A stretch of 64,000 bases of DNA from an uncultured Planctomycetaceae bacterium (GCA_963833985.1 CAWIAD010000002.1:5312001-5376000); one strand, 5' to 3'; positions 3,776 through 38,306 are shown, counted from the stretch's first letter. A program made the numbers and translations. The notes: generated by a model not told the origin, from the letters alone.

Positions 3776-5851
3776 TCAGAACGGCGGTGGAACGGCCGCG
3801 TCTGGGAGCGAGGGAACTTCCCGGCTCGTCAATTCGACATCTCCGTCCAGTGGTGTGCGCAGGCGGATGCCGCGATAATGGGCAATCCGCTGGGGACCCT
3901 CACGGAACCGGCTCTTGCTGAGTTCTGGAATGGCTGCATGGAGGTCGCGACCGAAGGCCGGCTCGTCACCAATGGCGTCGCGGCCTTGCTCCTGGCACCA
4001 GCTTCGCCAGGCGTCGTAGAGTGCCGCGACTGACACCTGTTCACCGGCACCGAGGACACAACGATCGCGCAGAAACGCTCCGATGGGGCTGCCCAGGTCC
4101 TCCATCGCGGCCATGAGAGCGCGGCCCGATTGCGGCTGCAAGAACCGCCCCCGCTCCCTGAGGCGCTGCCAGCCCTCCAGGGCCCAGAGCAGGATGCCCG
4201 GCAGCTCCCGGAGCAACCGTTCGTACAGGCCCGTATCTTCGCGGTCGTAGAACGATCGGGTGAACCGCAGCAGGATGAGCCGGCTCGCCAGGGCCCCGCT
4301 GGCATCACGTAACCGCGGCAGCTCATTGGAGATGAGCACGAAGCGCGTGGGCAGCCGGCCCGTCCAGGCCGGCAAGTGTTTGCGATCGATGGTCTGGTCG
4401 TCCTCGCCGCTGATCGAGAGCAAGCATTCCACGATGGCGGCATTGTCGGGCCGGCTGGAAAGCCGGGCGTCCGGAAAGATGGCCACCGGTTTGTCGATCA
4501 GCACGGACAGCCCGAACGGCCGTGCCAGAGTCGAAAGGGTTGGATTCGCGACGTTATTCGCCCCCACGAGCGCCTTGAGCACCCGCGCGATGGTTCCCCG
4601 GCCCGACCGCTTCGGGCCCACCAGCATGGCGATCTTCTGCTGACGCGTGTCCGTGGTCAGCAGGTAGCCGAACCACTCCTGCAAGCAGGCAATGCTCTCG
4701 ACGTCGTCTTCCCAGATCTGCCGCAGGAACGCCAGCCATTCCGCGGGCTCGCTCGCTCCGGGCACGAAATCGTAGTCCAGGGCGAAGCCGTTGAAGAACT
4801 CCGGCGTCGCCGCCAGCGTGCATGGGCGGCCCTCCACAAAAGAGGGCAGGTGAACTAGCCCGTTGCGTGCTGGCAAGATCTCCTGGACGGGCCATGGTGC
4901 GGCCCCGGCCGCATCCGGGCGGCCCGCCACCCAGGCTGGCTGCCGGGGACACTCGCTGGTGGGCACGAGGACCAGCCCCGTGATGGCCTGGACCACGTCG
5001 CTCACCATGCGCCCGGTGACCGGGATGGGCCGGAGAATCCGCTGGACGCTCGGAGAGCCGGGAGAATCCTCCCGTTTATGAAGGCGCGCTTCCATCTCCG
5101 CCTTGTATAAACGGTCGAATTCGCCGGCGAGGAATTGCGAAAGCCGTGCGCGAACCTCACTCATGGGAAGCGTGCGGTAGGCACATCCATCCCATGAATA
5201 AAACAGATCGCGCCAGTACCGCAGTCCGATCCCTCCCGGAAACGTGAAGTGGGCGTCCAGGAAGAGACGGGCCAGGCGGTGCGGGTTGGTCTCCTGGCCC
5301 ACCGGGCAGACGACGCCAGCGGCCTGGCCCGCGCGCGGCCTGGCTGCGCGGCCGCCTGCCGGCAGGGACGGCGGCCTGCCCGCGGGCGGCGGTTTCCTGT
5401 CTGATCTGAGATATCCCCTGGCGCGATCGTCGGCCGTCTTGTCAGCGCTTCTGAGCTTGTGCTCCAGCTCCTTGGGGCCCCAGGGAGGCAAGCACCGCTG
5501 GTTCCATTCCAGGAGGAACGGCCGGGCCTCGTCGATGGAGAGCCCGAACCCCTTGACGAGCACGCAGGCGACGTGGAAGGTGCGGTCATGGCCGCGCTCG
5601 CCAGAGACGGCGGGGGGAATGCGGGACAGGTAGGTGGCGATTCGCCGCGGCAGGGTGGTCGAGCGGTCATCGTGCCGGAGCGGCCCGGCCGGGGTCTTCG
5701 CCGGGTGGGAACCGGTCTGATCCGGCAAGGCCGGAGTGGGCCGCCGGGTACGAAGCCACGCGACAAGATCGAGAGGCAAGAGGGGAAGGGCAGTTCGTGA
5801 AGCTCCGCCCGGCAGTGGCTCCGGGCGGCTGTTCTCGGGGTGCATGGTCAT
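3776..5851 (-). CDS. Phage/plasmid P4-family (D5-like SF3) helicase with N-terminal PriCT-like domain
   Basis: 'LQEWFGYLL..QQKIAMLVGPKRSGRGT' (Walker A variant), 'LISNELPRL..GALASRLILLRF', N-terminal 'PPAVSGERGHDRTFHVAC..WNQRCLPPW'. Confidence 0.85.
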   Translation of the reverse strand: MTMHPENSRPEPLPGGASRTALPLLPLDLVAWLRTRRPTPALPDQTGSHPAKTPAGPLRHDDRSTTLPRRIATYLSRIPPAVSGERGHDRTFHVACVLVKGFGLSIDEARPFLLEWNQRCLPPWGPKELEHKLRSADKTADDRARGYLRSDRKPPPAGRPPSLPAGGRAARPRAGQAAGVVCPVGQETNPHRLARLFLDAHFTFPGGIGLRYWRDLFYSWDGCAYRTLPMSEVRARLSQFLAGEFDRLYKAEMEARLHKREDSPGSPSVQRILRPIPVTGRMVSDVVQAITGLVLVPTSECPRQPAWVAGRPDAAGAAPWPVQEILPARNGLVHLPSFVEGRPCTLAATPEFFNGFALDYDFVPGASEPAEWLAFLRQIWEDDVESIACLQEWFGYLLTTDTRQQKIAMLVGPKRSGRGTIARVLKALVGANNVANPTLSTLARPFGLSVLIDKPVAIFPDARLSSRPDNAAIVECLLSISGEDDQTIDRKHLPAWTGRLPTRFVLISNELPRLRDASGALASRLILLRFTRSFYDREDTGLYERLLRELPGILLWALEGWQRLRERGRFLQPQSGRALMAAMEDLGSPIGAFLRDRCVLGAGEQVSVAALYDAWRSWCQEQGRDAIGDEPAFGRDLHAAIPELSKSRFREGPQRIAHYRGIRLRTPLDGDVELTSREVPSLPDAAVPPPF

Positions 5852-5910
5852 CCGCCGGCACGATCAATTCTTGCAGGTCTTTTCAGTTGCCTTGCAAGCG
5901 AGGACGGGGT

Positions 5911-6663
5911 TCATTGGCCTGTTCCCTTACCATCCAGAGTAACCGGACGCCAGGGCCGATCAGGTCTGGAGGAGCCTTTCGCCTTGAGCGTGCCGGGCAA
6001 GCCGATCAGTCGCGCCGGGTTGACCGTGGCGGTGTCAATGACCACCGCGTGATCGTTGTACCGCCGCGCCAGCATCGAGACCGCCTCGGCAACGCAAGCC
6101 CGGTGCGCAGGGTCATTCGGGTAGTCAGGTAAACGGATCAGGACCCAGCAACCGTTCCCGGATCGGCCCCAGAGCGCGGCAGACGCCAGCTCCGGGCAGT
6201 CCGTAAGGATCGCGTCGCGCCGGGCCACTGCTGCCGCCAGCTCCGCGTCGGTGCTGCTGGTGTCCGGGGGGCGTACCGGGTCGATGTCAAGAAAAAGCCA
6301 GCGCAGGCAGGCGATGTTGTCGTCGCGGGTGGTGTGCCGGGCCCGTGCCAGGCGGTGGTCGCAGCGTGCCAGCAGATCGCGGCGCACCGGATTGATGGTG
6401 ACGTATGCCGAGACGCCGCGGAGCCTGCGGGAGTGCGCGATCAATTGCTCCACATCCTCGTACCATCCGGAAATCGTGGCGCCACCCTGATGCAGGCCCA
6501 GCTCCGCCGCGCGGTGAACGTTCCCCCGGCGGTCGAATCCCGCGTGCAGGATACGCAGTTCCGTGCAGCCCACCTCCGGCGCTCGCAAGAGCGACAGGAA
6601 CTCTCGTGTCGCCCCCGGATCGCCCGCGGCAGGCAGCGATGAGGCCGTGTGCAGCGTGTTCAC
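5911..6663 (-). CDS. Putative primase/PrimPol-like (RepB-like) catalytic protein
   Basis: 'YVTINP', 'WLFLDIDP', 'SGNGCWVL', 'NPARLIGLPGT' motifs. GTG start overlaps the sigma gene stop (GTGA). Confidence 0.65.
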   Translation of the reverse strand: MNTLHTASSLPAAGDPGATREFLSLLRAPEVGCTELRILHAGFDRRGNVHRAAELGLHQGGATISGWYEDVEQLIAHSRRLRGVSAYVTINPVRRDLLARCDHRLARARHTTRDDNIACLRWLFLDIDPVRPPDTSSTDAELAAAVARRDAILTDCPELASAALWGRSGNGCWVLIRLPDYPNDPAHRACVAEAVSMLARRYNDHAVVIDTATVNPARLIGLPGTLKAKGSSRPDRPWRPVTLDGKGTGQ

Positions 6664-7685
6664 GAGAGGCACTTTCTGAACGCCGTGCGCAATTTCTCCA
6701 TGGCGGTTCGCTCGAGCTTGCGGACCAGGTGGACCGAGATGCCCAGGGCCCGGCCGAGGCGGGTATAAGTCCATGGATCCGGGGGAAGAGGCGGCACTGA
6801 GCCCGGCTGCGCATCGGCATCCTGAGGATCGTCCAGGCCGTAACGCCGGCGGATCAGCCAGGCCTCGAGCGGCGTCAGGCTTGCCAGCGCTGCGTGCATC
6901 TCGTCGAGCAGCTCGATCCGCTCGCATTCCTCCTCCGGATTGGAAGGGTCGGCGATGATGTCCTCGAGTGAGATCGGTTCGCCATATTCGTTGATGCCAT
7001 AATACGACGAGCGAGAAATCCGCGACTGGTCCAGAAGCTCGAGCTGGCGGCTAGTCAGCCTGGGCTCGTCGTTGTCCGCGGTGGGAGTGCTCGATGCATC
7101 GACCGGAACCAGGGCGGACTCGCCCGAGCACTGGCGCTGCTCCGCTTCGCGGCGCGACTTGATGCTCAGCCGGAACAGATAATCAGGCATTCGGATGAGC
7201 GAGAAATTGGCGGCCACGGCGCGCTGGATGCTGTTCTTGATCCAGTACATCGCATACGTGGAAAAACGCGTGTTGTGGGTTTCCGGTTCGAACCGCTCGG
7301 CCGCCTTGATGAGACCCTGGGTACCTTCCTGGATGAGGTCTTCGAGAGTGGCCCCGAACGAGTAGTAGCGTCTGGCGATGATGGTGACCAGCCGCTGGTT
7401 CGCCAGGATCAGGGCGTCGCGAGCGGCCAGGTCGCCGGCTTTGACCCGCACCGCCAGCGCATTTTGTTCGGCTGCGGAGAGAATGTCTGGCCGCGTCAAC
7501 GGAGCATATACGGGCCTGGCTACCTGGTGGCTGGCGTCCGCGGTTTCGGCCTGCCCAGCCTGCTCACCGGGCCGGCTGCCATGGGGGCGGCCTTTGGACC
7601 AGAACCGGGCTTTGCGGCGCCTCGCCAACCGCGGCGCCGGCCTCGCGGGATAGGGTTCCGGGCAACCTGTCAACGTTGCGATCAT
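6660..7685 (-). CDS. RNA polymerase sigma-70 family factor
   Basis: Region 2 'ANQRLVTIIARRY..EDLIQEGTQGLIKAAERFEP..RFSTYAMYWI' and region 4 HTH 'TYTRLGRALGISVHLVRKLE'. GAGGA RBS. Confidence 0.9.
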   Translation of the reverse strand: MIATLTGCPEPYPARPAPRLARRRKARFWSKGRPHGSRPGEQAGQAETADASHQVARPVYAPLTRPDILSAAEQNALAVRVKAGDLAARDALILANQRLVTIIARRYYSFGATLEDLIQEGTQGLIKAAERFEPETHNTRFSTYAMYWIKNSIQRAVAANFSLIRMPDYLFRLSIKSRREAEQRQCSGESALVPVDASSTPTADNDEPRLTSRQLELLDQSRISRSSYYGINEYGEPISLEDIIADPSNPEEECERIELLDEMHAALASLTPLEAWLIRRRYGLDDPQDADAQPGSVPPLPPDPWTYTRLGRALGISVHLVRKLERTAMEKLRTAFRKCLS

Positions 7686-7737: not shown

Positions 7738-8280
7738 TCAGACCGAGGCCGCCTTGCTCCGATCGCGAGCCGGAACCTGCCAGATGACCCGCAGCCGCCC
7801 GGGTGCGCTGTGGCCGGGCCCGACGCGGACGCTCCAGCGGCCCTCGGCCACGCCCTCGACGGCACTGCGGGCCGTGGGAAAGCTGCGGCTCACCGGTTCC
7901 GCGCCAACATGAGCGGCCCGGCGCACGTACCATCGCCCGGCGATGTGCCCCGCGTGGTACTGCTGAACGAACCGGGGAGTGTAGACGACAAGCTCTTCGC
8001 CGGTGAACCGATCGAGCACCCGCAGGCGGCCGTCGGGCTCGCGCGGTGCGACATGCAGCCGCGAGATCAGGGGATTGTGAATCGGCAAAAGCGTCAACAT
8101 CGCCAGGGCGCCGCGGGACGAGCTCGATGCGCGGCGGGAGCGCCCGCGGGATCGAGGGGCGGGCAAGGCGGGCGCTCCAGCGGGCAGGCCGGTGCCGGCT
8201 CCCTCGGCCGGTCCGGCGGGCGGGTGCGGTGCCGTGGCCGGCCGGGCCGGGCCGAGACGCGATTGTGTAGTGAGCGACAT
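7738..8280 (-). CDS. Hypothetical protein
   Basis: GAGGAGG RBS before ATG 8280; co-oriented within the operon. Confidence 0.55.
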   Translation of the reverse strand: MSLTTQSRLGPARPATAPHPPAGPAEGAGTGLPAGAPALPAPRSRGRSRRASSSSRGALAMLTLLPIHNPLISRLHVAPREPDGRLRVLDRFTGEELVVYTPRFVQQYHAGHIAGRWYVRRAAHVGAEPVSRSFPTARSAVEGVAEGRWSVRVGPGHSAPGRLRVIWQVPARDRSKAASV

Positions 8281-8335
8281 GGCCGTGAGCCTCCTCATCT
8301 GGAACAGTGTGAGGCGAGTCTTTCAGGAATTGCGA

Positions 8336-9082
8336 TCAGCCCTGGCGCACGACGGCTGGACCGCCGCGACGAGTCCAGAGCATCGGCACGACTGCCGGCG
8401 GCGAAGCACCCGGGCCTCCCCATGCGGAGGGCACGTCCGCGGCGAGCCGGCGCAGCAACTCGGGAGCGTTGTCGCCAGGCCGCATGGACCGGGCAAAGAC
8501 CTCGAGCGCCAGCGCGGCTTGCTCTCCCCGACCGCTGCCCAGTCGCTTGATCCATGCAAAGGGCCGTGCGTCGTCCTGGAAGGCGAGTTCGGCGACCAGC
8601 TTCAGCGCGGCGATCGAACACTTGCCGTCGCGGCGGACGAGCTCGACGGGAATCGCGCTCCATCTCCAGTCCAGGATGGCTCCGTCGAGCTGGGCTCCGG
8701 TGAGCACGGCGCCGCGGAGGTCGGCCCCCACCAGCCGCGCCCCGGCGAGGTTCGCCTGGCGCAGGTCCGCGCTGCGGAGGTCGGCCTGGCGGAGATCGGC
8801 AAGGGCCAGAGAGGCGCCGCGGAGATCGGCCCCCACCAGCCTGGCGGCCCGCAGGTCCGCCTTCCGGAGATTGACGCGGACCAGCTCGCTGCCGCCCAGA
8901 TCGGCGCCGCGGAAGTCTCCCTCCTCCAGATCGGCCGCCTGCACCTTGATTCCTTTCAGGTCGGCGTAGAGCATCCTCACGCCCCTGGCCACGGCCAGTT
9001 CCAGGGCCTGCGGATAGGTATCGGCCTCCACCATTGCGATCGGCCGCGTACTCCAGCGATGAAAGATCGGGAAAGTCATCAT
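8336..9082 (-). CDS. Pentapeptide repeat protein
   Basis: Long run of A(D/N)LxG repeats. Confidence 0.85.
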   Translation of the reverse strand: MMTFPIFHRWSTRPIAMVEADTYPQALELAVARGVRMLYADLKGIKVQAADLEEGDFRGADLGGSELVRVNLRKADLRAARLVGADLRGASLALADLRQADLRSADLRQANLAGARLVGADLRGAVLTGAQLDGAILDWRWSAIPVELVRRDGKCSIAALKLVAELAFQDDARPFAWIKRLGSGRGEQAALALEVFARSMRPGDNAPELLRRLAADVPSAWGGPGASPPAVVPMLWTRRGGPAVVRQG

Positions 9083-9336: not shown

Positions 9337-9549
9337 TCAACCGGGACCGACGGGCCCCGAAGGCCTGATCGGCGGCTGGACTATCGGCGGATCATCGGTC
9401 GGCAGGTCGCCCGGATCGTCCTCGGGGTCCGGCAGCGGCTCGTCGCCGGGCGGCGCGACCACCGTATGCGCGACCAGACTGCTGAGGCTCAGCTTGGTTT
9501 CCAGCGCGTCAAAGGCGCTCATTCCCTCGATGACAAACATGCGGCACAT
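9337..9549 (-). CDS. Small acidic, Pro-rich protein
   Basis: GAGAGGGG RBS; 'FDALETKLSLS' motif; C-terminus 'PPIVQPPIRPSGPVGPG'. Confidence 0.5.
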   Translation of the reverse strand: MCRMFVIEGMSAFDALETKLSLSSLVAHTVVAPPGDEPLPDPEDDPGDLPTDDPPIVQPPIRPSGPVGPG

Positions 9550-9654
9550 CAGGATGCCCCCTCTCTCGAAGTTGTTGTTCCCGGTTCCGAAGAACCAGCC
9601 TTATGAAACAATCAGGCCACCGGCCTGGTTGTCTCCGTTACCTCCCGCTCACTG

Positions 9655-9730
9655 CAACTGTCTCCCGTATAATCTGGATATTGTGTTGTGAAGTTGCAGG
9701 AAAATGGGAATTCTTTGGAAGATTTTCCGC
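9655..9730. promoter_or_regulatory. AT-rich intergenic segment with an inverted repeat, upstream of the sigma/primase module
   Basis: GGAAAAT (9699-9705) and ATTTTCC (9722-9728) in an AT-rich gap. Confidence 0.3.
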
Positions 9731-9908
9731 AGAGGGCTGAACCAGCCCGATCCGCCGGGATTGCCCCGGCAGCAAGGTCCATCAGTGCCTGGCGTGTGCC
9801 AGGTCCCGCAGGAGAGTGGGAGCGTTGATTTGCTGCGCTCTTGCAAGTCAGGGAGTGGCTTGCGGCAAAAGTGACGTGCCCGGAGTATGCCACTCCCATC
9901 AACGCGTC

Positions 9909-10202
9909 TCAGCCGGCGTCGCGCGACAGGTCCCCACGCAGAATACGAGCGACCCGTTCGCATGCGGCGATATACATCTGGTCGAACGCGAACTGGACTC
10001 GTGCGCTCGGATCGGTCTCGTGGTTGCGAAGCTGCAAGAGCGGAACGACGGCCTTCAGCCAGAGCCGGTTCTGAACGTCCGCGTCAGTGGTATCGAGACA
10101 CAGGTCCGCGGCGCCAGGGTCTTCTGCCTCGGTCCGGGCAGCTGCCGCTTCGGTGTCGGCATCATCGGATGGATCGGGAGTACTGGATGCTTCGGGATTC
10201 AT
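9909..10202 (-). CDS. Hypothetical protein
   Basis: Co-oriented ORF with an acidic N-terminus and a helical-looking C-terminus. Confidence 0.5.
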   Translation of the reverse strand: MNPEASSTPDPSDDADTEAAAARTEAEDPGAADLCLDTTDADVQNRLWLKAVVPLLQLRNHETDPSARVQFAFDQMYIAACERVARILRGDLSRDAG

Positions 10203-10248
10203 GGCCGTCTCACTTCTGGGCGATGAGGACACGCGCCGGGCAGCGGGC

Positions 10249-10629
10249 TCAGTACAGCGCAGCGGTGCGGAGGCAGGAGATGCAGTCGTGGTGGTTCACC
10301 AGGCCCCCGCGACCGCGCCCCTGCCCGCAGTGCGCCAGGCCTCCGCAGCCGCAATCGGTCTCGGACTCCCGGTACGGGCACGCGTACATCTGGTTGAGAA
10401 TGCTCCGCATTTCCGCCGCGTTGGGAAGGTCCGGAGAGGGGGACTTCGATCTGGGGTCATCGCCCGGCACCAGCGCTCCGGGTGTGAGAAGCGGGAGGTA
10501 GGCCGGGTTGTAAGCCGGGTGGTCCGGATCCACGAGCTCGCAGAGCCGTGGTACGTCGGTCCCCGCACAGTGCAGGCCCGGCGCGGTCGGACAGTTCGGG
10601 CACCGCGCCGGCTCAAGGGCGAGTTTCAT
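10249..10629 (-). CDS. Cys-rich protein, putative metal-binding tail-tip component
   Basis: CPNC..C..C, CPY..CGC..C..CISC; last gene of the tail module. Confidence 0.55.
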   Translation of the reverse strand: MKLALEPARCPNCPTAPGLHCAGTDVPRLCELVDPDHPAYNPAYLPLLTPGALVPGDDPRSKSPSPDLPNAAEMRSILNQMYACPYRESETDCGCGGLAHCGQGRGRGGLVNHHDCISCLRTAALY

Positions 10630-10654
10630 CGCGTGTGTCTCGGAAGGCTCCGCT

Positions 10655-11413
10655 TTACTGCGTGATCGTGAATGTGCTGTAGCCGTTGGCCCAGAGTACC
10701 GGGCAGATGTTGCTGTTGATGGAGTACTGAAGCAGAAAGGGACTGCAACTGTAACTCGAAAGCAGCAGCCCGAACGGGTCGGACCCCGGGCTGGTGCAAC
10801 TCTGGCTCTGGCCCCCGGGGCAGGTGCCGGAGAGGAAATACGTCACGTTGAACTGAGTTCCCCTCCCCGGGCACAAGAGCGAGAAGACCAGCTGGTTGGC
10901 GCAGGCCGAGATCCACTGGCCCGGGGGAACGAACGCGAGCGCGGCGGACCCGTTGCCCACCAGGTTGTTCTTCCAAGAGATTGTCAGATTCTGCCTGGGA
11001 AGGTTGCACGGGGAGCAGTTCAGCGAGGGTGTGGACCCGCCTGACTCGGCCACCCACCGGCCACCGACAGCCAGCGCCGGAAGGATCTGGCCGACCTGCG
11101 GTGGGGCGTTGCCGATGACCACCACCGGAATCTGGCGGGTCGCGTCCACCACGAATGCCGGCGCCGCTCCCTCCCGCTCCGTGCCACCAATCCGTACCGG
11201 GTTGACCAGGTAAACATGCTTCGTGTTCGAGGGCATGGCACCGCCGTTTGTCACCTGGCCCAGCAATCGGGGCGTACCCCGGGGCAGGCGTGCATGAGCG
11301 GCCAGTGCAACGGCCGCGAGACCGGGAGCAGGCGAGGCGGGCTCGCTTCGTTCCTGCCAGCGCAGCCGCAGCAGGCGCGTGGGATCAAGCTTCTGGCTGG
11401 ACCTGCCGATCAC
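10655..11413 (-). CDS. Putative tail-tip protein with Cys-rich C-terminal domain
   Basis: N-terminal domain is paralogous to 11429..11757; position after the hub gene. Confidence 0.55.
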   Translation of the reverse strand: MIGRSSQKLDPTRLLRLRWQERSEPASPAPGLAAVALAAHARLPRGTPRLLGQVTNGGAMPSNTKHVYLVNPVRIGGTEREGAAPAFVVDATRQIPVVVIGNAPPQVGQILPALAVGGRWVAESGGSTPSLNCSPCNLPRQNLTISWKNNLVGNGSAALAFVPPGQWISACANQLVFSLLCPGRGTQFNVTYFLSGTCPGGQSQSCTSPGSDPFGLLLSSYSCSPFLLQYSINSNICPVLWANGYSTFTITQ

Positions 11414-11428
11414 GAGTGGTCCCTCAAT

Positions 11429-11757
11429 TCAGCCGTCGTACCGGAAGGCCCAGCGCCCGCCACTGGCGTGCGCGATCACGATGGTGCCCACGGGAGGCAA
11501 CTGGCTGCCCACGTTGAAGGCGTAGAGAGTGCGCGTACTGTCGGCCGTGAATGACGCGGCCGCGCCCTCGTTCTCGAGGCCGTCGACCAGGACCGGATTG
11601 CACCCGTAGCACGCCCCTGCGGTGGTCGGATAGGCGGAGACGGCGGTGGTCTGAACCAGGATGGCAACGCCTCCATCATGGGCGAAGCCCGCGAGCCGAT
11701 CCGCGGCCGCCAGTGCATCGGCCTGGCGCTCGCGGAGAATGCGCGTGTCCATCATGA
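11429..11757 (-). CDS. Putative tail-tip protein
   Basis: 'NPVLVDGLENEGAA..ADSTRTLYAFNVGSQLPPVG..GGRW'; position in the tail module. Start approximate. Confidence 0.55.
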
Positions 11758-29163: not shown

Positions 29164-29171
29164 GATCGAAT

Positions 29172-29852: not shown

Positions 29853-29953
29853 TGGTGGTGCTCGCCTTGTGGTTTTGCGGTGTCGGGCCGAGGGCCGGAT
29901 GAGGGGAGCGGGGCTGGGACATGCAGTCGGCCCTGCCCCTGCCTCTTGCCTGT

Positions 29954-30702
29954 TCAGGGCAGCACCCAGCGCTGGAGCGGCATGCCGACGGCGGTCATGC
30001 TGCTGCTCACGGCCGCGGGCAAGTTGTTGACAACCAGGCTGCAAGACTCGCCCAGGGCCTGGTTCCAGAGCGCCACGACTCCCTGCCAGCTTGTATGCTG
30101 ACCGATCACCATGCGGCGCTCGATCGGATAGCCGGAGAGGTAGTTGCTCAGGTCTTCACTCAGGCGCTCGAGCGTCTTTTCCGTGATCGGCAGCGGCAGC
30201 AGTGAGTAGATCCGCTGCACATGGGCCCCGGCGCCTGTGGTGTTCTGGTTGGGGGTCGACTGCGTGGGCTGGTCCGCGGGGATGGCGTACGACAGGGCGA
30301 ACGTGGTGCCCGTCACGCCGCTGGCGTACAGCGTCTCGGTGCCACTGGGCAGGTTCGGGTCGGTGAGGTAGATGTTCATCGCCTGGCAGCCGGCGGGGAG
30401 GCTGGGCAAGGTGACCGTCGCCAGGTGCGCGCTGTCGGCCTGTGTGAACTGGCGCTCTCGCTGGTGCCGAGCGTGGTCTCGCCGAACGGGTCGACGAACG
30501 TGTAGGCCACGAAATACGTTCCTACCGGCAGGCTGGAACCGGCCGACGTGATGGACACGGTGGCCTGGGTGGTCGGGTTCGCCTTGGCGACGTTGGCGGC
30601 GATCAGGTTGTCGAGCACGATCTTCAAGCCGCCCGTCTTGTACTGCGCCCAGGTTGTACCGGAGGGCGTGATCACAGGCGGAACATAGGTGTCTCGGGCC
30701 AC
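29954..30702 (-). CDS. Putative head-associated protein (frameshift near 30450)
   Basis: ORFs 30376..30702 and 29954..30409 join into one beta-rich protein ('GTYFVAYTFVDPFGET'). Confidence 0.55.
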
Positions 30703-30705
30703 GGG

Positions 30706-31035
30706 TCAGCCCCTCCGTTTCTTCTCGGTTTTGGTGTGGGTGTTCGTCTCGGTGAGGGCGAAGGCCGGCGCCGGCAGTTCCAGCGCGGTGGTGACTTCCA
30801 GGATCGCCGCATCGGCGCCTTCCAGCGCCAAGGCCAGCGAGTCCCTGGTCGCGACGACGTGTTCCAGTAATTGCCGCTGGCTGACCGGATCAAGCCGAGG
30901 AAGCTGGCCGAGTGCGTCCTGCATCTGAGACAGATGCCAGATCTGCCGGCAGCGGCCTGACTGGTGCAGGTTACGCCCGGTCTCCGCGGCGACTCTCTCG
31001 ATGAACGGCCAGATGCCGGGGAACGTGTATGACAT
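30706..31035 (-). CDS. Hypothetical phage protein
   Basis: Directly downstream of the capsid gene. Confidence 0.55.
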   Translation of the reverse strand: MSYTFPGIWPFIERVAAETGRNLHQSGRCRQIWHLSQMQDALGQLPRLDPVSQRQLLEHVVATRDSLALALEGADAAILEVTTALELPAPAFALTETNTHTKTEKKRRG

Positions 31036-31072
31036 GTCTCTCAGTTGCCATTGGCCGGTGGCCGGTTAGAAC

Positions 31073-31133
31073 CAGTGGGCAGTGGGCAGTGGGCCATGAG
31101 GTATTGGGTACGGACCCTGGCACACTGCCCACT
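31073..31133. repeat. CAGTGGG heptamer repeats forming a hairpin just 3' of the capsid gene
   Basis: (CAGTGGG)x3 at 31073-31093 and complementary CACTGCCCACT at 31123-31133. Confidence 0.7.
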
Positions 31134-31139
31134 TCATGG

Positions 31140-32294
31140 TCAGGCGGCCGCGAACGCGGTGACGCCGGTGACCCAGGCGTGATGGGCTTCGTTATCCAGC
31201 TCGATGGCGCCTTCCATGATGATGTCGCCCTCGAACGCATCGCCGCGGCTGCCACGGGGCTTGTCAATCATGGCGCGCTTGAGGCGGATGCGGACCTCGG
31301 CGTCGGACAGGCAGATCGCGGTGCCGGGCCGCAAGAGAGGGGCAGGGATGATGCTGATGCCCGAGAGGAAGGGCGCTTCGAAGAGGTCGATCGGCGTGCC
31401 GAAGACGTTCGAGCCGGCCGGAATCCGCATGGCCGCGTGGCCCCAGACCGCAAAGCCGGAAAGGAAATCAGTGCTGACCACCAGCACGCTCGGGTTGCCG
31501 CCTCCGTTGAAGCAGGCCTGGATCGTGTCGCGCACCAGGTCCGAAGGCTTGTAGGCCGCGGCGTTGATCGGCGCGCTCACGTTATTGCTCTGGACCAGCG
31601 TCGAGACTCCCTTCATGAGCGGCCGGCTCGTCGAGGCCGAAAGGGGCACGCCCTTGCCGTAGTAGCAGGCGCTCTCGAAGTCGTCCATCACGTGCTGCAT
31701 CGCCAGCATGCGGTCGCGGTCCAGCGGGGTGGCGAAGCCGGTGACGTAGTTGCTGTCGGCTTGCAGGGCGCCGCCCACCTGGTAGGCATGCTGCACGGTC
31801 TGGCAGTACTGGGTGACCGCCTGGGGAATGCGGCTGACGCTGGCGACGTTCAGCTCGGCACCGGTGCGCGTGTTGCTCACCAGGTAGGCCGTCGCACCGC
31901 TGGCGTGGCTGGCCGCGGTGGTGCCCGCGTAACCAGGCTGCACGCTGATGGTCGTCGCGCTGGTACCGGCCGAGCCGGCGTCGGGCGTACCGGTGACCAG
32001 CATGTACTCCTGGTCCACCTGGATCACGTCGCCGATGTCGTACTCGCTCGCATCGCCGACGGTCAGGGTGGTGGCCCCCGCCGTGAAGGCGGCAGCGACG
32101 GGCTGGCTACGGGGGCGATAGTTGTCGTTGGTGATGAGAAACTGGGGCGCGCCGGTCGGCAGCTTGGGCAGCCGGGAGATCAGTGGCGTGCGGTTGACGA
32201 ACCAGTTGATCGCCACTCCGAACACGTCGTTCGGAATGACCCCGGCGTTGAACGCCGTGAATTGAGTCAGCGGTCCACCTTCATACAGAGGCAT
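31140..32294 (-). CDS. Major capsid protein, SU10/DUF5309-like, with inserted beta domain
   Basis: 'TPLISRL', 'TQYCQTVQHAYQVGG', 'DFESACYYG', 'RPLMKGV', 'GDAFEGDIIMEGAIELDNEAHH'. Confidence 0.8.
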   Translation of the reverse strand: MPLYEGGPLTQFTAFNAGVIPNDVFGVAINWFVNRTPLISRLPKLPTGAPQFLITNDNYRPRSQPVAAAFTAGATTLTVGDASEYDIGDVIQVDQEYMLVTGTPDAGSAGTSATTISVQPGYAGTTAASHASGATAYLVSNTRTGAELNVASVSRIPQAVTQYCQTVQHAYQVGGALQADSNYVTGFATPLDRDRMLAMQHVMDDFESACYYGKGVPLSASTSRPLMKGVSTLVQSNNVSAPINAAAYKPSDLVRDTIQACFNGGGNPSVLVVSTDFLSGFAVWGHAAMRIPAGSNVFGTPIDLFEAPFLSGISIIPAPLLRPGTAICLSDAEVRIRLKRAMIDKPRGSRGDAFEGDIIMEGAIELDNEAHHAWVTGVTAFAAA

Positions 32295-32387
32295 GGGTTA
32301 GTCCTTTGGCACGTGGCCGATGAATGAACAAAGCGGGTCTTCTCAACTTCTGGCCACTGGCCACAGACCACTGGCCAATGCGATGGG

Positions 32388-33134
32388 TCACTGCCGGTTG
32401 CCGGACGGGCGAAGCCCGAAGGCCTGGTACTGGTTCTGCCGGTTCCTCCATTCCGAAACGATCGAGTCGAGCGAACCGGGCTGGGTCAGGGACGGGCCCG
32501 CCGGTGGCCGGGTGGCGTCGCTGCCGGAACCACCGCGTGAGGACGGGGCGAAAAAGATGGCGAACTGAGGCGAATCGAGGCGCTCGCGGAGCACCTCGGT
32601 CGCGGGCCGGCCGCTCACCTTCTCCCGCACCATCAGGGCGCCGGAGCCGTCACGCGTGGTCTCGAATTCGTCGGCCAGCAGGCGGCGGACCATCACGGCC
32701 GTGGCGGCCCGCGCCTCGGGCGTCTCACCCACGAACGCACGGCCGTGGAAAGCCTCGGCAATGGCCGAGTTCTTGCGCTCGGCATTGACTTGCTGCTCGA
32801 GCTGGCTGTAGCGGTTCAACGCCTCGGCATGTTTCTGTTCCCAGCTCTTCCGCTGCTGGGTCAGCGCTTCCTCCACCTGGCCCTTCTCGGCAAGCGCCCG
32901 CAGCCGCTCGGCCTCCTTGGCCTCGAGCATCGCTTGCTGGGCTTTCTGCACGTCCTCGAGTTGGTGCTCCAGCGATCGCAGCCGCTGGTACTCCTCGACG
33001 CTCAGGTGAATCGTCGGCGGCAGGGACGCTTCGGGGACCGTGGAAGGGCGGCCGGAATCTGGCGGCAGTGCCGGCTGCGCCTGGCCAGGAGACGTCGCGC
33101 CGGCATTCGTCGGCGAATAGGGTTGGTCACTCAC
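32388..33134 (-). CDS. Putative capsid scaffolding protein
   Basis: Coiled coil 'EAKEAERLRALAEKGQVEE' and 'FFAPSSRGGSG' tail; lies between portal and MCP. Confidence 0.7.
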   Translation of the reverse strand: MSDQPYSPTNAGATSPGQAQPALPPDSGRPSTVPEASLPPTIHLSVEEYQRLRSLEHQLEDVQKAQQAMLEAKEAERLRALAEKGQVEEALTQQRKSWEQKHAEALNRYSQLEQQVNAERKNSAIAEAFHGRAFVGETPEARAATAVMVRRLLADEFETTRDGSGALMVREKVSGRPATEVLRERLDSPQFAIFFAPSSRGGSGSDATRPPAGPSLTQPGSLDSIVSEWRNRQNQYQAFGLRPSGNRQ

Positions 33135-33237
33135 GGTAAGGCTCCAGTGCGTGGCGCTCTCTTGCGGGATGTGGTCGCTTCGGCAAGTCCAGGCTTCGCA
33201 GGGCACGGGCTTCGCAAGGCCCCGGCTCCGCGGCGCG

Positions 33238-34883
33238 TTACGGCTTTGTTTGCGGCTCCGGGTCGTCGGCCTCGCCCTCGCCCTCGCGGAGCTCCCCCGC
33301 ACGGGTGCGCAGGTAATCGTCCAGCTCCGTGTCGAACTCGCTGTACTGCTCGTCCTCGAGGCCCGGAAGCATCAGCCGGACCAGCCTTCGCAGCAGCTCG
33401 CTCTCGGTCTCCGGCGCGTTGCCGGCATTTGCCAGGATCTCCTGGAACTGGCCGATCGTCCGTGCCAGCTCCTCCGCGGTGAAAAGATCGAACTGCGTGG
33501 GATAAGCAATCCTCACGTCCTCGCGATCGGCGGAGGCCCGGCCGTCGTCCAGCACCAGCAGGGCCAGCTCGGCGATCTGCTTCTCGGCGCGGCCCAGCAT
33601 GCCGGCAATCTTGCCCAGCAGGTCGTTGCCGGCGGACTGGTCGATCCGCTTGGAGATGCCGCTCTGCGCGACGGTCGTCCCTGTTGATCCGCTCGCACCG
33701 GCCGGCTTCAGCAGCAGCGCCGCGCGGTCCGCGGCGTCGCGCAGATCGGCCTTGTTCAGGCGGATCGACTCGGCACCCCCCTTGGGAAACTCGACGACGT
33801 CGAACCCCTCGTAGGTCGCGCCCGCACCGCTGGAGTTCTTCTTCTTGGGCAGCAGCCAGTTCGGGCCGATCGGCACCGTGCCGTCCGGCTGGACGTAGTC
33901 TTCGGGTCCCTGCAAGAGCGGGTGCGCCTGGGTGGTATCCGAGAGGATCAGCTCGCTATCGCGGTTGTAGAATTCTCGCTGAAGCTCGGCGATGGATTCG
34001 TACCGCGGCAAGCCGATGTTGCCAAAGCGCGGCCGGCGGCGGTCGAACACCCGGACGATGGGCACTCGCCCGAACGGATGCGCGACGGGCCCGGCCTGGA
34101 TGTCGCCGGCTTCATCGAAGAGCATCCAGGTTCTCGCGTCCCAGTAACGCCAGAGAACCGAGCCGTCATCGCGCACCTCGCGGACCACGCACTGGCGGTA
34201 ATGGCCAAGCCGGTCCAGGCTCCACCAGAGCATGTTCTCGGGAAGGATGTACGAGGCCACGCAGCCGTCGAGGCCCAGACGAAACTCGTCGGCACGGGTG
34301 CGGACCTGCTCGCCGTCGGGAAGCGGCGGGTGGTCGACCACGATGTCGAGCTGGCCCAGCACCAGGAGCAGCGGGGCGATGGTCCCGGACATCCACTGGT
34401 CGATCGTGGTACCGCGGCCGTCCACGTTCTTCCACCAGGCGCGGAGCCTTTCGGGAGCGCCGCGATGGACTTCCCGGCTGAAGATCCGCGCCAGGTGGGC
34501 CTCGACCGCCTCGGCCACGAACGTGGGCACGGGCGTGCGCGCCTGCGCAGCTCGTAATCGTCGTCGGTGGCCTGGTTCGCCGGATCGGTGCCCGGCGGCC
34601 TGCCGGTCTGCATCGAGTAGTTCGAGTCGAATGCCGAAGGGTACTCGCGCTTGTGCCGGATGAGGTTGCGCACGGGCAAGCCGTGGATGTCATATCCATA
34701 CACGGCCATGCGATAAGCCTCGCCCCCTTCCCACGAATCGAGCAGCCAGCGCCAGCGTAGCTGGAACAGGATCCACTCGTTGTGGGGCCGCTCGATCGTT
34801 TGCCCGTCGGGCAACGCGATGCGCGGCATCCCCCCCTGACTCGCCAGGTAGGCCAGGGCCGCTGAGTTTGGTGCAAGTGGCAT
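33238..34883 (-). CDS. Portal protein (frameshift near 34540)
   Basis: 'RHKRE..DYELRR', 'HPFGRVPIV', 'QSGISKRID', 'IAYPTQFD'; directly after terL. Confidence 0.8.
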
Positions 34884-34928
34884 GGTAGAAATCGGTGGGT
34901 TTCTTGGGAAAACGGGATCAGTGCTGCG

Positions 34929-36437
34929 TCAGAACACTCGTGCCGCCCGGGCCCTGCCCAGGCCTCTTTGCCGGCTGTGACTTTCCGGGAGCATCAGCTT
35001 CAGTGCTCCGCGAAGGGCATCGATCAGGTCCTCGTGGGGGTGCTGCGGATCGGCCGGGTAGTCCATCCACTGACCCGAACGGCGGGCTCGGGCGTAGCTT
35101 CTCATGGCGGCGATCAGAGTGTTGCACCGCGGGTGGATGGTCAGGCGGACGCCGCCGTCGGCCGAGCGGACGAGGTTCTCTATGAGACCCAGGCCATCGG
35201 TCACGCAGCCGGGATACTTGGGCCACTGGAGCAGGCCGCCGTCGCCCACCAGGCCGCACCTCTGGTACTCCGCGATGACGGTGGGCCCGACCGGGTTCCG
35301 CGACCCGCCGGCCGAATCGGTAGACACCTGCCGTCGCGCCGCACCACAGAGCCGTTCGGCCATGCCGCGGATCGACAGGGCGCAGGATTCGGCAGTCTGT
35401 CCCTCGGCCAGGAAGTCCGCGAAGATGTTCACCCGTGGCAGGGCATCGGGGCGCAGCTGGAGGAACACCGCGCCGGTGAAGACGCCACTGTCGATGGCAA
35501 TGTGCACCGGCAGCTCCGGGTTGAACTCGGCGTCCGGCGAGACGTTGTCGGCCTCGACAAACTGCGCGAACCAGACGCCGTCGGCCCGGGGCCCCCGGCA
35601 CAGGTAATCGCTGGCGAAGACCCGGGGTGAGACCGCCTTGCACTTCTGGATCAGAGCATCGATGGTGTAATGACCGCGGCTGCGCTTGGCCTTGGGCCGG
35701 CCGTGGGGGTCAAGATCGCGGTCCTCGTGACACCAGCTCACCAGGGGACACGCGGGGCACTTCTCCAGGTTCGGGCCGCTTCGCTCCGGTGGGCAACGCT
35801 CCAGCACCTCGAACATGCAGTACGTGAAGACCGGGAACTCGCCGGACCGCCCGCGCTCGATGAGCTGCGACATCGGTCCCACCAGGCGGTGCCAGGTTGA
35901 GGTCATGAGCACGCTGGCGCGGCAGCCGTGCCGCTCCATCACCATGCCCATCGCCGACTCGCGGATGTCCGGGTCGATCTCGTCCACCTCGTCCAGCTTC
36001 AGGCTGGCAACGTGCGGGCCGCGAACGCTGGTGGGGCTGGCGGCCAGGATCGCCACGCGCGACCGGTTCTGATACACGACCTCCGTCTTCAGCAGCTTGC
36101 CAATGGCGGCCGCGTCGCCGCCCAGGGCGCCCCTGCCATCGACGATCGCCTCGGTGAGCGCCCGGTAGATCTGCTCGGACTGCGCCTTGGAACCACCCAG
36201 GATCCTGGTTTCGTGGAGCGGGTGGAAACGGCTCTTCAAGTGTGTGTCGATGGCCGAGAGAAATGACTTGCCGCTGCCGCGCGGGCCGTGCCAGAGTGCC
36301 AGAGAGGGTCGCTCCAGCACCTGCTGGCTGAACATCGCCAGCGGCGCGGAGTGCCCCACGCAGACCGGGCGGTCGGGAATGCGCACACCGGTGAACTGGC
36401 GGACCCAGTCGGCCAGCTCGGCGCTGCTGGCCGGCAT
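34929..36437 (-). CDS. terL: Terminase large subunit
   Basis: Walker A GPRGSGKS, Walker B LKLDEVD, 'MTST' coupling motif, RNase-H-like 'AIDSG' and 'HEDLIDALR'. Start uncertain (the frame is open to 36572). Confidence 0.85.
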   Translation of the reverse strand: MPASSAELADWVRQFTGVRIPDRPVCVGHSAPLAMFSQQVLERPSLALWHGPRGSGKSFLSAIDTHLKSRFHPLHETRILGGSKAQSEQIYRALTEAIVDGRGALGGDAAAIGKLLKTEVVYQNRSRVAILAASPTSVRGPHVASLKLDEVDEIDPDIRESAMGMVMERHGCRASVLMTSTWHRLVGPMSQLIERGRSGEFPVFTYCMFEVLERCPPERSGPNLEKCPACPLVSWCHEDRDLDPHGRPKAKRSRGHYTIDALIQKCKAVSPRVFASDYLCRGPRADGVWFAQFVEADNVSPDAEFNPELPVHIAIDSGVFTGAVFLQLRPDALPRVNIFADFLAEGQTAESCALSIRGMAERLCGAARRQVSTDSAGGSRNPVGPTVIAEYQRCGLVGDGGLLQWPKYPGCVTDGLGLIENLVRSADGGVRLTIHPRCNTLIAAMRSYARARRSGQWMDYPADPQHPHEDLIDALRGALKLMLPESHSRQRGLGRARAARVF

Positions 36438-36453
36438 GCGATTGCGGACCGCG

Positions 36454-36807
36454 TCAATCAGGCTCGGCAGGACCCTGGTCTCGTCCCAGCTCGAGAATCT
36501 GGCGGGCGAGTTTGTCATCGATGTCAACTGCATCACGGCTTGAGGGGTCCGCGGAGCCCGGCTTGCCGTCAAGCCGGGTCCAGATTTCCAGCATGGCCCG
36601 CAGGCTTCCTCTGTCGGTGAATTCCAGGAGTCCCTGCACCAGCCGGTCTTGCCAGGAGACTCCGTCGCTGCTTCGCTTGTTGAGGTGGTTCCTCAGGCGG
36701 AAGGTCAAGCTGCCTCGGGCGGGGACCTCACTCTGCTGCCTCCGGTCGTTCTCCGGGGCCTCAGCCGGGTCGTTGTTGAGCCATGAATCAAGTTGAGGAT
36801 CGGCCAT
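36454..36807 (-). CDS. Putative terminase small subunit
   Basis: Immediately upstream of terL; 'GSLRAMLEIWTRLDGKP' resembles TerS-like C-termini. Confidence 0.55.
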   Translation of the reverse strand: MADPQLDSWLNNDPAEAPENDRRQQSEVPARGSLTFRLRNHLNKRSSDGVSWQDRLVQGLLEFTDRGSLRAMLEIWTRLDGKPGSADPSSRDAVDIDDKLARQILELGRDQGPAEPD

Positions 36808-37166
36808 CAGGGCACCGTCGAAGTGTCCGAGTTGTCCACGATGTGCCCGAGCTGCCGGATGATCCCCTCGAGCTGTTCCATCATCTCGTGCCGGTGCTTG
36901 TCATCCTCGTTCTGCTGCTTCTGGCTGTCTTGCAGCGACAGGAGCAGGCTGGCGAACTGACCCTGCTGGAAGGTTTCCTGCCGCTGGAACCGCTGGCGGA
37001 CCTCGCGGACCAGGGCGCGTGACCGCCGCTCAACTTGCCAGAGCTCGATGCTCATGTAGCCAAGAATGAGCGCCAGAAACACAAGCGCCCTGAGCTGCGG
37101 TGTGCGCTGCCGCCACCAGCCGAGCAAGTCATACCAGATGAATGTCCGCCTCGGATTCTTCATCAT
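36807..37166 (-). CDS. Single-TM coiled-coil protein (holin/antiholin/spanin-like?)
   Basis: TM 'ALVFLALILGYMSI' followed by a Gln-rich coiled coil. Confidence 0.5.
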   Translation of the reverse strand: MMKNPRRTFIWYDLLGWWRQRTPQLRALVFLALILGYMSIELWQVERRSRALVREVRQRFQRQETFQQGQFASLLLSLQDSQKQQNEDDKHRHEMMEQLEGIIRQLGHIVDNSDTSTVP

Positions 37167-37503
37167 CAAAGTGAACCTCCGGAACCGCCGGCAGCGCCGC
37201 GACAGCACCGTGCGCTGCCTTGGCCCAGCCATACAGCTCACGCACGGCGACGCCGGACCGGCTGCTACGCAGCTTGATCCTGAGCATGGCGACCTCGTGC
37301 TCGCGCTGCTTCTGCCGGTCCGACCAGTAGTCCTTGATAAAGGCGGAGATCGCCGCGACCAGTCCCGCCCCGCCCAGCAGGAACGAGCCCGTGCCCACGG
37401 AGGTGTCCGTCGAGCTCGCCTCGGCGATCACCGCAGCGCCGGTGGCCAGCAATCCGCCCACGACGGTGAGTGTCCTCGAGGTGAGTTCTGGCAGAATGCT
37501 CAT
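37129..37503 (-). CDS. Holin-like small membrane protein
   Basis: Two hydrophobic segments followed by the charged 'DYWSDRQKQREHE'. Confidence 0.5.
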   Translation of the reverse strand: MSILPELTSRTLTVVGGLLATGAAVIAEASSTDTSVGTGSFLLGGAGLVAAISAFIKDYWSDRQKQREHEVAMLRIKLRSSRSGVAVRELYGWAKAAHGAVAALPAVPEVHFDDEESEADIHLV

Positions 37504-37676
37504 GACACGCTCCACCCTTCCCGGTGCTGAAACGAGATGAGTTCACGGAAGAACGTTCCAGACTCTTTCGGAGAAGAGCAACGCAAGACCTGCTAGCGAC
37601 AGCAGGACCAGCCATGCCAGGTCTCCATGGTCCATCCTCGGCACGAATCGTGGCATGGCCGGAGCCTGTGGTGAAA

Positions 37677-38306
37677 TCAAGGTTTCCACGCTTTGACTTG
37701 CGGGGACGGATCCGCCGCATGGCTCGCGGAGGTCCCTGCCTGCGCCAGTCCTGTACGCCGGGCCGCGTACAGCCGCTCCCGGCGCTGCTTCCTCGTCTCC
37801 TTCACTCCCACGGCTGCCCTGACCGCGGCGGGCTTGCTCTCGGGACGCGGGTCGGTCCGGGGGTCGCGCTTCAGCGCTGGATGGTCGTCGAATCCCGACC
37901 GGGAACAGACCATGCAACAGAACACCGACCCGCGAGGGATCGGGCCGTGATGCGGACAGACCGATTGGGGGGTGAACGACCCGACCGGGAAAAGCGGCAT
38001 CAGCCGGGGCGGACGATCGCGTGCATCACCCGAGAGGCTGCGCACTGCGCCACTTGCCACCTCGTCCCGTGTGTGCAGGTCCCCGCTGAATCGGGTATTG
38101 CTGGAACGGGAGATCTGATGATTCGCTTTCTCCCGCGCTCGGGAGACCCCCAGCTGGATGCTGCGGCAACTGAGCCGTTCCTGCCTGGCGATCTCCTTGA
38201 TGCTCTTGCCGCAACGAACCTCTTCGAGCCAGGAAAGCTCGCGGCCCTGGCAGGCCACGGAACGCTGGGGCCTGCTCATGCCAGGTAAACCACGTGTACC
38301 GGCCAT
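37677..38306 (-). CDS. Putative HTH plus Cys/His zinc-finger regulator
   Basis: 'GKSIKEIARQERLSCRSIQLGVSRA' HTH; 'CPHHGPIPRGSVFCCMVC'. Confidence 0.6.
   Translation of the reverse strand: MAGTRGLPGMSRPQRSVACQGRELSWLEEVRCGKSIKEIARQERLSCRSIQLGVSRAREKANHQISRSSNTRFSGDLHTRDEVASGAVRSLSGDARDRPPRLMPLFPVGSFTPQSVCPHHGPIPRGSVFCCMVCSRSGFDDHPALKRDPRTDPRPESKPAAVRAAVGVKETRKQRRERLYAARRTGLAQAGTSASHAADPSPQVKAWKP

Follow-up and report, generated by a model that had tools for sequence, protein, structure and literature searches.

A host-retained, integrase-less tailed-phage gene cluster of Isosphaeraceae is a candidate gene transfer agent-like system

We analysed a stretch of 64,000 nucleotides, hereafter the window, from an uncultured Planctomycetaceae bacterium (GCA_963833985.1, CAWIAD010000002.1:5312001-5376000). 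A block of 34.5 kb at positions 3776-38306, counted with the window's first letter as 1, encodes the parts of a tailed-phage particle. An initial interpretation, hereafter the sequence-only reading, had proposed that this block is a domesticated virion system resembling a gene transfer agent (GTA). Open reading frames (ORFs) were called with a codon model trained on the genome; 38 of the 39 ORFs in the block lie on the minus strand, the exception being a weak call of 54 amino acids (aa). In reading order, the block starts with a helix-turn-helix (HTH) protein, two small membrane proteins, a likely small terminase, the large terminase (TerL), portal, scaffold, capsid and adaptor. It continues with a variable fibre region, the tail terminator position, the tube, the chaperone position and a 309-aa gene in the tape-measure position, and it ends with tail-tip genes, the hub, small genes, a pentapeptide protein, a sigma70-type factor, a prim-pol-like gene and a D5 primase-helicase. 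The proposed single-strand head-tail gene set amid chromosomal genes was thus recovered, with TerL, portal, scaffold and capsid recognised by profile and tube and hub by fold. The sigma70-type factor and the D5 primase-helicase with its prim-pol-like partner were additional to what had been noticed before. All genes of the block and of its flanks described below lie on the minus strand.

For comparison, 43 capsid loci from 41 genomes were read, namely 19 of site-A type, to which the window belongs, 18 of site-B type (together the resident loci), and six others. Across the resident loci, the most conserved core consists of portal, capsid and adaptor, and TerL is found at 31 of 37. In the window, TerL (34929-36518; phrog_2, E 1.6e-12) has intact Walker A (GPRGSGKS), Walker B (LKLDEVDE) and nuclease aspartate motifs, all in invariant alignment columns. 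A search of the PDB with the TerL profile gave no match from which a packaging class could be assigned, and headful packaging is proposed. The portal (33238-34883; phrog_145, E 1.8e-32) carries one frameshift here and is continuous, at about 555 aa, in relatives. It is followed by the head scaffolding protein (32388-33134; phrog_206, E 7e-11) and by the major capsid protein (31140-32294; PF17236, E 7e-41), which is of the SU10 type with an inserted beta module. Against the PDB, the capsid profile matched 9in6, 'major capsid of VP1', over nearly its full length (E 1.9e-25), and otherwise only 9ny2. Two small head-associated genes (29954-31035), of 109 aa and of 244 aa (Ig-like, with a weak HYR match, and split here), are conserved in relatives. 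The likely head-tail adaptor (29172-29849) occurs at nearly all loci, including those that encode only a head, and gave an atlas lead (score 0.95) to a Mu gp36-domain cluster in which 24% of members carry the family. The block holds no recognisable stopper or Neck1 gene.

The likely small terminase (36454-36807) was assigned from its position before TerL and from an alignment of homologues, in which the C-terminal part is conserved and the N-terminus varies. One homologue matched DUF5681 over profile positions 24-75 only, below the cut-off. An N-terminal GRNPKG stretch in the small terminase of one phage-type relative is missing from the eight aligned resident-type homologues. Because the residents keep the C-terminal part and not the phage-type N-terminal motif, we propose a small terminase of low specificity, comparable to the TerS of RcGTA, which likewise lacks a specific DNA-binding domain (PMC7947584). 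At site-B loci, a strongly conserved HTH gene of 75-95 aa occupies the position that corresponds to the small-terminase-like position of site A (L089:8580-8912, L086:11766-12020).

The adaptor is followed by a variable fibre or appendage region (20887-29235) with a gp80-like protein, beta-rich proteins, a split esterase, an Fn3 protein and a 1458-aa protein (weak Gp80, fn3 and phrog_1101 matches), the content of which differs strongly among relatives. The likely tail terminator (20414-20866) gave no profile match; it precedes the tube and is kept in several head-only loci. Structures were predicted for tube and hub because neither had a profile match. The best Foldseek match of the 138-aa tube (19946-20362; predicted local distance difference test, pLDDT, 78) was the tail tube of siphophage R4C (8gtb, E 3.3e-5), and chain 6tba of RcGTA ranked fifth. 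The baseplate hub (11796-13934; pLDDT 84) has a gp27/gp44-like fold with insertions and matched the hubs of injection systems, Mu and T5 (E 4e-10 to 8e-8). No tail sheath was matched by profile in the block. Two small genes in the tail-chaperone position (17240-17945) were assigned by position from their conserved order. The gene in the tape-measure position (15979-16908), of which only the C-terminus is conserved, indeed has the short length noted earlier (309 aa), with 12% proline. It measures 205-352 aa with 8-18% proline in 10 loci of lineage A1 (see below) and up to 521 aa in other residents; the tape measures of prophage-type copies have 512, 693, 769 and 924 aa and 2-7% proline. The tail-tip genes (13968-15916) comprise a gene in the distal-tail position, an Ig-like gene and a 263-aa gene that is split here (weak Ig_J and phrog_31 matches, conserved order), and five small genes (9337-11755; tail tip, Cys-rich and others) are conserved at site A. 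A split membrane protein gene (18010-19775) is inserted outside the conserved core, between the tube and chaperone genes. Among the compared loci it occurs only here and in G006 (L075), there near the tail end amid similar cargo; cargo genes differ between copies.

Both ends of the block encode likely regulators. An AT-rich block upstream (38330-38480, minus strand) is predicted to contain the main promoter region, and a comparable block occurs in most of 17 site-A upstream regions, which come from both site-A head lineages and were aligned by eye. No sequencing run, of RNA or otherwise, was listed for positions 28700-38300, which is no indication for or against expression. The first gene (37677-38306), conserved at site A, encodes a sigma-region-4-like HTH with a Cys-rich motif and is a likely regulator (weak Sigma70_r4_2, E 0.018; atlas leads below 0.9). 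The sigma70-type factor (6660-7499; Sigma70_r2 and r4), a likely activator, belongs to a module whose tree follows the host tree. Between it and the tail genes, a pentapeptide-repeat protein (PF00805, E 1.6e-25) and a conserved 120-aa gene (7738-9034) form a pair found at 14 site-A loci and at no site-B locus. The two small membrane proteins of 124 and 119 aa (36807-37503) have hydrophobic stretches and are likely lysis accessories. Just upstream of these genes, 15 of 19 site-A loci contain a lysis-like cassette of three genes, encoding a peptidase-like protein, a holin-like protein and one more. The absence of an endolysin, noted earlier, therefore holds for this genome but not for these 15 loci of the same lineage. 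The peptidase-like protein of G004 had no Pfam match and only a weak pairwise match (E 0.04) to the Pfam Peptidase_C1 protein of G095b; from motifs seen by eye, the relatives' peptidase may be papain-like.

The block lies between ordinary chromosomal genes, as had been described: a PEP-CTERM protein and an M32 carboxypeptidase, the marker of site A, on the left (535-2927), and an HlyIII-family membrane protein and another PEP-CTERM protein on the right (38618-40682), identified by profile matches and locus comparison. Its composition is host-like as well, with a GC content of 65.9% compared with about 65% for the genome; among 293 windows of the genome, its tetranucleotide distance ranks at the 79th percentile. 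The reported host-type heptamer repeats reduced to one array inside the block, CAGTGGG x3 at 31073-31094, the unit of which is indeed the genome's commonest heptamer array (14 of 65). The portal and several other genes are interrupted by frameshifts here. Decay of the element was ruled out as the cause: frame changes were found in 10 of 31 host genes and in 2 of 12 element genes tested, and because host genes are affected at least as often, the gene splits are probably errors of this assembly.

Neither an integrase nor an attachment site was found for the block, in agreement with the sequence-only reading. The nearest tyrosine integrase lies more than 550 kb away, the window contains no tRNA or tmRNA gene, and no direct repeat of at least 10 bp is common to both junctions of the block. 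The integrase with att sites at both ends that characterises an active temperate prophage is therefore not in place. No integrase was matched inside any resident element, either by a local screen with 13 queries or by a profile search, the screen being the less sensitive and the profile search limited to five genomes. In G002 and G033, which lack the element, the M32 flanks are rearranged, and no att core could be read from the empty sites. A serine recombinase gene at 56932-58806, 18.6 kb from the block, was considered as the missing integrase and rejected, as it is one of 11 near-identical copies in the genome, lies within a group II intron and is no conserved feature of site A. In this intron (56381-60417), a segment of 2,019 bp (57153-59171), which encodes the large serine recombinase and has inverted ends of 26 bp, interrupts the reverse transcriptase gene. 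Intron and segment together form a composite of 4,037 bp, present in seven genome copies that are more than 99.8% identical; the recombinase segment is inverted in two further introns, missing from two introns and found alone at two other sites. This arrangement suggests an invertible element carried by a mobile intron.

The distribution of the cluster was determined in 74 Isosphaeraceae genomes of at least 85% completeness and in 24 genomes from other families of the class. The capsid gene is present in 56 of the 74, and 50 of these 56 have a single locus; the other families yielded one marginal match (E 1e-3). The closest named relatives also belong to the Isosphaeraceae, namely Aquisphaera insulae (81% capsid identity) and Paludisphaera soli (76%). 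The anticipated syntenic single copies were thus found, and they occupy two conserved chromosomal sites. At site A, the M32 peptidase gene lies directly downstream in 12 loci of five genera, and an HlyIII/PEP/PadR or esterase gene lies upstream. The M32 gene also follows remnants in G006 and G011 and is inverted nearby in G085; G093 and G020 are of site-A type without a flank match, and four more loci are on short or incomplete contigs. Site B is marked by EgtD/PfkA/S4/CvpA upstream or Trm112 downstream in 15 loci of 13 genera, the exceptions being G028 and G029 with other flanks and G016, a 3-kb contig. Presence in every genome was not observed: 18 of 74 lack the capsid gene, some being fragmented with other parts retained (G003, G006, G011), and in genus g21 capsid, TerL, tube and hub are all absent from 3/3 near-complete genomes. 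Beyond these families, the capsid profile matched 50 of 400 other Planctomycetota genomes at E <=1e-15, mostly once each (G255, G447, G405, G319 and 46 more). Five of these genomes were tested further; four had TerL matches, far from the capsid gene, and none had a tail tube.

A tblastn search of 50,697 phage records with TerL and capsid returned nothing; close matches to free phages, which would have counted against the sequence-only reading, were thus missing from that set. Twenty related loci were found in IMG/VR, some of resident type and others phage-looking with a different gene order; L139 includes the host HlyIII gene. The 'viral' contigs L138-L142 group with resident copies and are probably chromosomal fragments catalogued as viruses, so that resident copies are entering IMG/VR under that label.

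The six other loci revealed the mobile state of the same gene set, and four to six prophage-type copies served as its control. A tyrosine integrase adjoins G094b, G095b and G100, in G095b just upstream of the same first gene as in the residents, and typical small phage genes occur in G094b, G100 and G025. A Neck1-like gene was found in four prophage-type copies and in none of the resident loci. In G025 (L059:11305-14928), an intein-containing 1,207-aa terminase of another class precedes the same portal and capsid. Residents form three lineages: A1 (the window's genus and g64), A2 (the other site-A genera) and B, with A1 nested among mobile copies. A single clade of residents was rejected by the approximately unbiased (AU) test on 24 portal-plus-capsid rows (p 1.4e-7 for site A alone, A1 plus A2, and 1.7e-6 for all), which contradicts a single GTA-like origin. 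The site itself and its upstream block are common to A1 and A2, as are the first gene, the lysis-like cassette and the sigma module; the simplest reading is therefore one capture at site A with a later swap of structural genes, the alternative being two captures at one site.

Within lineages, the element has diverged together with its hosts. Element trees were compared with RpoB of the same genomes, and shuffles shared fewer than 0.3 splits on average and at most four. The site-A head tree has 9 of 15 splits in common with RpoB (shuffle mean 0.09, maximum 2), the site-B head tree 7 of 15 (shuffle maximum 4), the regulator-module tree 7 of 11, and the tail tree of both sites 12 of 20, recovering 10 of 12 well-supported host splits. 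The site-B tail tree alone (seven loci) shares 2 of 4 splits, within the shuffle maximum of 4 and thus no more than expected by chance shuffling. Ratios of non-synonymous to synonymous divergence (dN/dS; Nei-Gojobori, 11 pairs) were 0.08-0.31 for TerL, 0.09-0.23 for the portal, 0.08-0.32 for the capsid and 0.07-0.19 for the tube, and 0.12-0.57 for the more weakly constrained sigma factor, all approximate because dS is near saturation. As phage genes are likewise conserved, these values are informative only jointly with the fixed site and the congruence. The dS of the element is similar to that of the flanking host genes or lower; the capsid has a lower dS than the portal in 10 of 11 pairs, as might be expected for a highly expressed gene. 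GC content at third codon positions was rejected as a discriminator, since residents track the host RpoB (rho 0.65, n 36) and mobile copies do so too. The predicted congruence with the host tree and dN/dS well below 1 were therefore both observed, and the patchy, site-variable and host-incongruent presence typical of prophages was not.

These data bear on the view that the cluster is neutral debris or an ordinary mobile prophage that occupies a hot spot of integration. The losses in 18 of 74 genomes, the 20 related IMG/VR contigs and the occurrence of two different head lineages at the same site would fit it. It is contradicted by the lack of integrase and att, the RpoB congruence, a dS equal to that of flanking genes, low dN/dS across genera and the resident type of several IMG/VR matches, one with the host HlyIII gene, and we regard it as highly improbable. 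Domestication of the element is well supported.

The optional replication module (3776-6663), with a prim-pol-like gene and a D5-type primase-helicase (PHROG primase, E 3.6e-54), raises a different alternative. The lack of replication genes expected of a GTA-like system did not hold: the primase-helicase is present here and, in all, at 7 of the 14 site-A loci that reach that far, with a dN/dS of 0.26-0.27, and at 0 of 18 site-B loci. The element could be a grounded prophage that replicates in place and packages itself and adjacent DNA in a manner similar to lateral transduction and that owes its persistence partly to selfish spread by homologous recombination. The intact and selected primase-helicase at seven loci, the nesting of A1 head genes among mobile copies and the resemblance of the element to a compact phage genome minus its integrase (compare G095b) are in line with such a prophage. 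However, the primase is absent from the other seven site-A loci and from all 18 site-B loci without any rise in dN/dS (for TerL of the pair G004/G013, 0.12), and within each lineage the element trees follow the host tree. We consider this alternative very unlikely.

Not all resident loci encode a complete particle. At G031, G108, G026, G030, G023, G022 and G061 (e.g. L032-L033, L089), an HTH gene is followed by TerL, portal, scaffold, capsid and adaptor, often accompanied by a gene like the tail terminator; host genes come next, with no tail in between. No tube or hub was found elsewhere in the head-only genomes searched. In the tail-less pair G031/G108, dN/dS was 0.08 for TerL, 0.09 for the portal and 0.15 for the capsid; as these genes are selected where the tail is gone, selection acts on the DNA-filling head. 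Capsid-forming phage satellites, which the head-only loci may resemble, have an integrase, a primase and head genes and lack a tail; the head-only loci have neither integrase nor primase. The head proteins might be kept by the host to interfere with related temperate phages or to hijack their tails. Close mobile relatives do circulate in the same hosts, portal, capsid and adaptor form a universal core from which tail or terminase can be lost, and the tail-terminator-like gene is often kept at head-only loci. Yet the operon of the full loci is complete, including lysis-like genes and a sigma factor of its own, which exceeds the needs of interference, and these loci lack the integrase of satellites. 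Such an anti-phage or tail-borrowing function therefore appears quite unlikely to us.

Loss of TerL was observed as well. It is kept at 17 of 18 site-B loci, and large-genome Isosphaeraceae (G032, G065-G071, G081-G083, G091) contain extra terminases, away from the cluster, that match only the nuclease half of this TerL and might serve loci that lost their own. A domesticated particle that transfers no genes, such as a PBSX-like killer, a decoy or a surface adhesin with packaged DNA as a mere filler, would be compatible with the strong variability of the fibre region and with the persistence of capsid and tail at the TerL-less site-A loci G007, G020, G032 and G068. PBSX itself packages 13.4-kb host fragments and yet works as a tailocin (PMC12946183). 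The pattern of loss does not fit a tailocin, in which the tail, with a sheath in contractile types, is kept and head and terminase are lost. Instead, the head is kept and the tail is lost in 17 of 56 genomes, the head-only lineages retaining head and terminase; no sheath was recognised, the best match of the tube is a siphophage, and TerL is present at nearly all site-B loci. A particle without gene transfer is unlikely in our judgement, though it deserves more weight than the other alternatives discussed above.

The cluster is a real, old, host-retained virion gene set, new as a system and GTA-like in anatomy and history. Its ancestry lies in a family of planctomycete temperate phages that still circulate, and it has fixed sites, host co-divergence, intact terminase motifs and a shortened tape measure, and has lost the integrase and the Neck1-like gene. 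We marginally favour the interpretation that this integrase-less, vertically inherited and purifying-selected cluster makes a GTA-like particle that packages host DNA with low specificity and passes it to related cells. Packaging of chromosomal DNA is favoured because an element unable to excise has its DNA-filling head under selection. In a minority of cells, the single-strand operon would be activated by the cluster's own HTH protein and sigma factor, scaffold, portal and capsid would assemble the head, and TerL would fill it by headful packaging, guided by the small terminase with its unconserved N-terminus. A short non-contractile tail with variable fibres would then be added, and the holin-like protein and the peptidase would lyse the cell. 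Where it survives, the primase-helicase would amplify the locus in place and bias packaging to neighbouring DNA.

Several observations weigh against this GTA-like interpretation. The low-specificity small terminase is argued from one or two phage sequences and a sub-threshold profile match, and the dN/dS ratios are, as said, approximate. The head might hold the whole 34.5-kb element, because a record of 38 kb represents a prophage relative whose capsid is 67% identical. The primase-helicase persists, whereas GTAs are said to have lost replication (PMC9662315). The three-gene lysis-like cassette is found nowhere in this genome, so that its copy of the element may be partly disabled, and in the window's genus copies are broken or lost in G002, G006, G007 and G011. 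The proline-rich remnant of the tape measure may fail to support tail assembly. Tube and hub are missing from the 17 capsid-positive genomes counted above, of which one is prophage-type and several are fragmented, and without them DNA delivery in head-only genomes is unexplained. At the four site-A loci named above, of 19, this type of TerL is gone or reduced to a remnant while capsid and tail persist, and at one more it is replaced. Because the residents do not form a single clade, there must have been several captures or swaps of modules. Of the vertically inherited particle system proposed by the sequence-only reading, synteny, congruence and low dN/dS thus stand, and a single origin, universal presence and absent replication genes do not. 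The cluster is a credible, independently derived GTA-like candidate as judged from its genes, the head-only and terminase-less forms being unexplained by a plain GTA. A broader proposal, which we regard as possible but rather doubtful, accommodates these forms: a GTA family of planctomycetes would have evolved independently through two or more captures from a phage lineage that is still alive, with module swaps renewing it since. Some genera would make complete particles with short tails, and others DNA-filled heads that have no tail or borrow one; the family would be the clustered form of a capsid/terminase system domesticated in much of the phylum.

Three further repeat features lie outside the block. 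A short intergenic palindromic repeat family, REP-like (repetitive extragenic palindrome-like; GACACGAT...GGAATCGTGT.CCAC), occupies 45621-45775, 48158-48236, 56188-56321 and 60398-60423; a 31-nt inverted repeat made of 9-mer units lies at 40878-41032, and an (ATCTG)x13.6 array at 61471-61538.

A published description of this cluster was not found in the literature searched; genome-survey tables could nevertheless list it. The text of a comparative genomics study of four Isosphaeraceae contains none of the words 'phage', 'terminase' or 'capsid' (PMC5352709). Elsewhere, the only planctomycete mention in the passages of PMC7947584 is a predicted Zavarzinella prophage, PMC13092639 mentions unspecified prophage genes, and passages of PMC12946183 contain no planctomycete mention. 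The GTAs that have been formally classified go back to three captures, which took place in Alphaproteobacteria and Brachyspira (PMC9662315); outside those groups, GTA-like elements are known in small number (PMC12946183). An independent GTA origin would be added by this candidate from Planctomycetota, for which cultured carriers exist, among them Aquisphaera insulae JC669 and Paludisphaera soli JC670. Moreover, a domestication series is visible, from integrase-bearing relatives through residents with and without primase to head-only forms, and it is therefore testable which losses make a prophage a GTA and why hosts keep such genes.

The closest known systems are temperate phages of Isosphaeraceae (G094b, which is IMG/VR L144, G095b, G100 and G073b), which share the structural gene set and its order, with capsids 32-67% identical. 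They differ from the residents in being second copies, with an integrase nearby in three of four, many small accessory genes, a tape measure of 512-924 aa and the Neck1-like gene. For the capsid alone, the near-full-length match links the cluster to the SU10 family PF17236 and Vibrio phage VP1 (9in6), a distant, lytic phage of a host from another phylum. The tail of PBSX is contractile. PBSX of Bacillus subtilis and FpGTA of Faecalibacterium are, like the cluster, resident, integrase-less and near-ubiquitous phage-like operons outside Alphaproteobacteria, and both package host DNA; unlike the cluster, PBSX is a killer and FpGTA is podovirus-like (PMC12946183; sequences compared by family scans). 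GTA viriforms are defined by six features (PMC9662315), three of which are present here on genomic evidence. Virion-type proteins derived from Caudoviricetes were recognised, in the genes alone, by profile (TerL, portal, scaffold, capsid) and by fold (tube, hub). Endogenisation is full on the genomic side, with the primase-helicase still in some copies, and inheritance is mostly vertical with host co-diversification within lineages, of which there are three overall. The other three features concern the particle: a content of mainly random host DNA, a head too small for the complete element, which the 38-kb record of the relative puts in doubt, and delivery of DNA to other cells, on which the head-only forms cast doubt. 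With RcGTA (Rhodogtaviriformidae), BaGTA and the Brachyspira GTA, the cluster shares a Caudoviricete-derived head-tail cluster without integrase, vertical co-divergence and purifying selection (PMC9662315). It also shares with them a short tape-measure gene and a small tail tube of the same fold. In contrast, there is no sequence kinship: capsid and TerL homology to the RcGTA-like family and GTA-specific Pfam matches were not found, the capsid here is of the SU10/VP1 type with a scaffold, and the TerL profile has no PDB match. The cluster differs further in its size of about 34.5 kb, its own sigma factor, the optional primase-helicase, its three lineages and its head-only and terminase-less forms. 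Judged on genomic grounds, it most plausibly works like a GTA.

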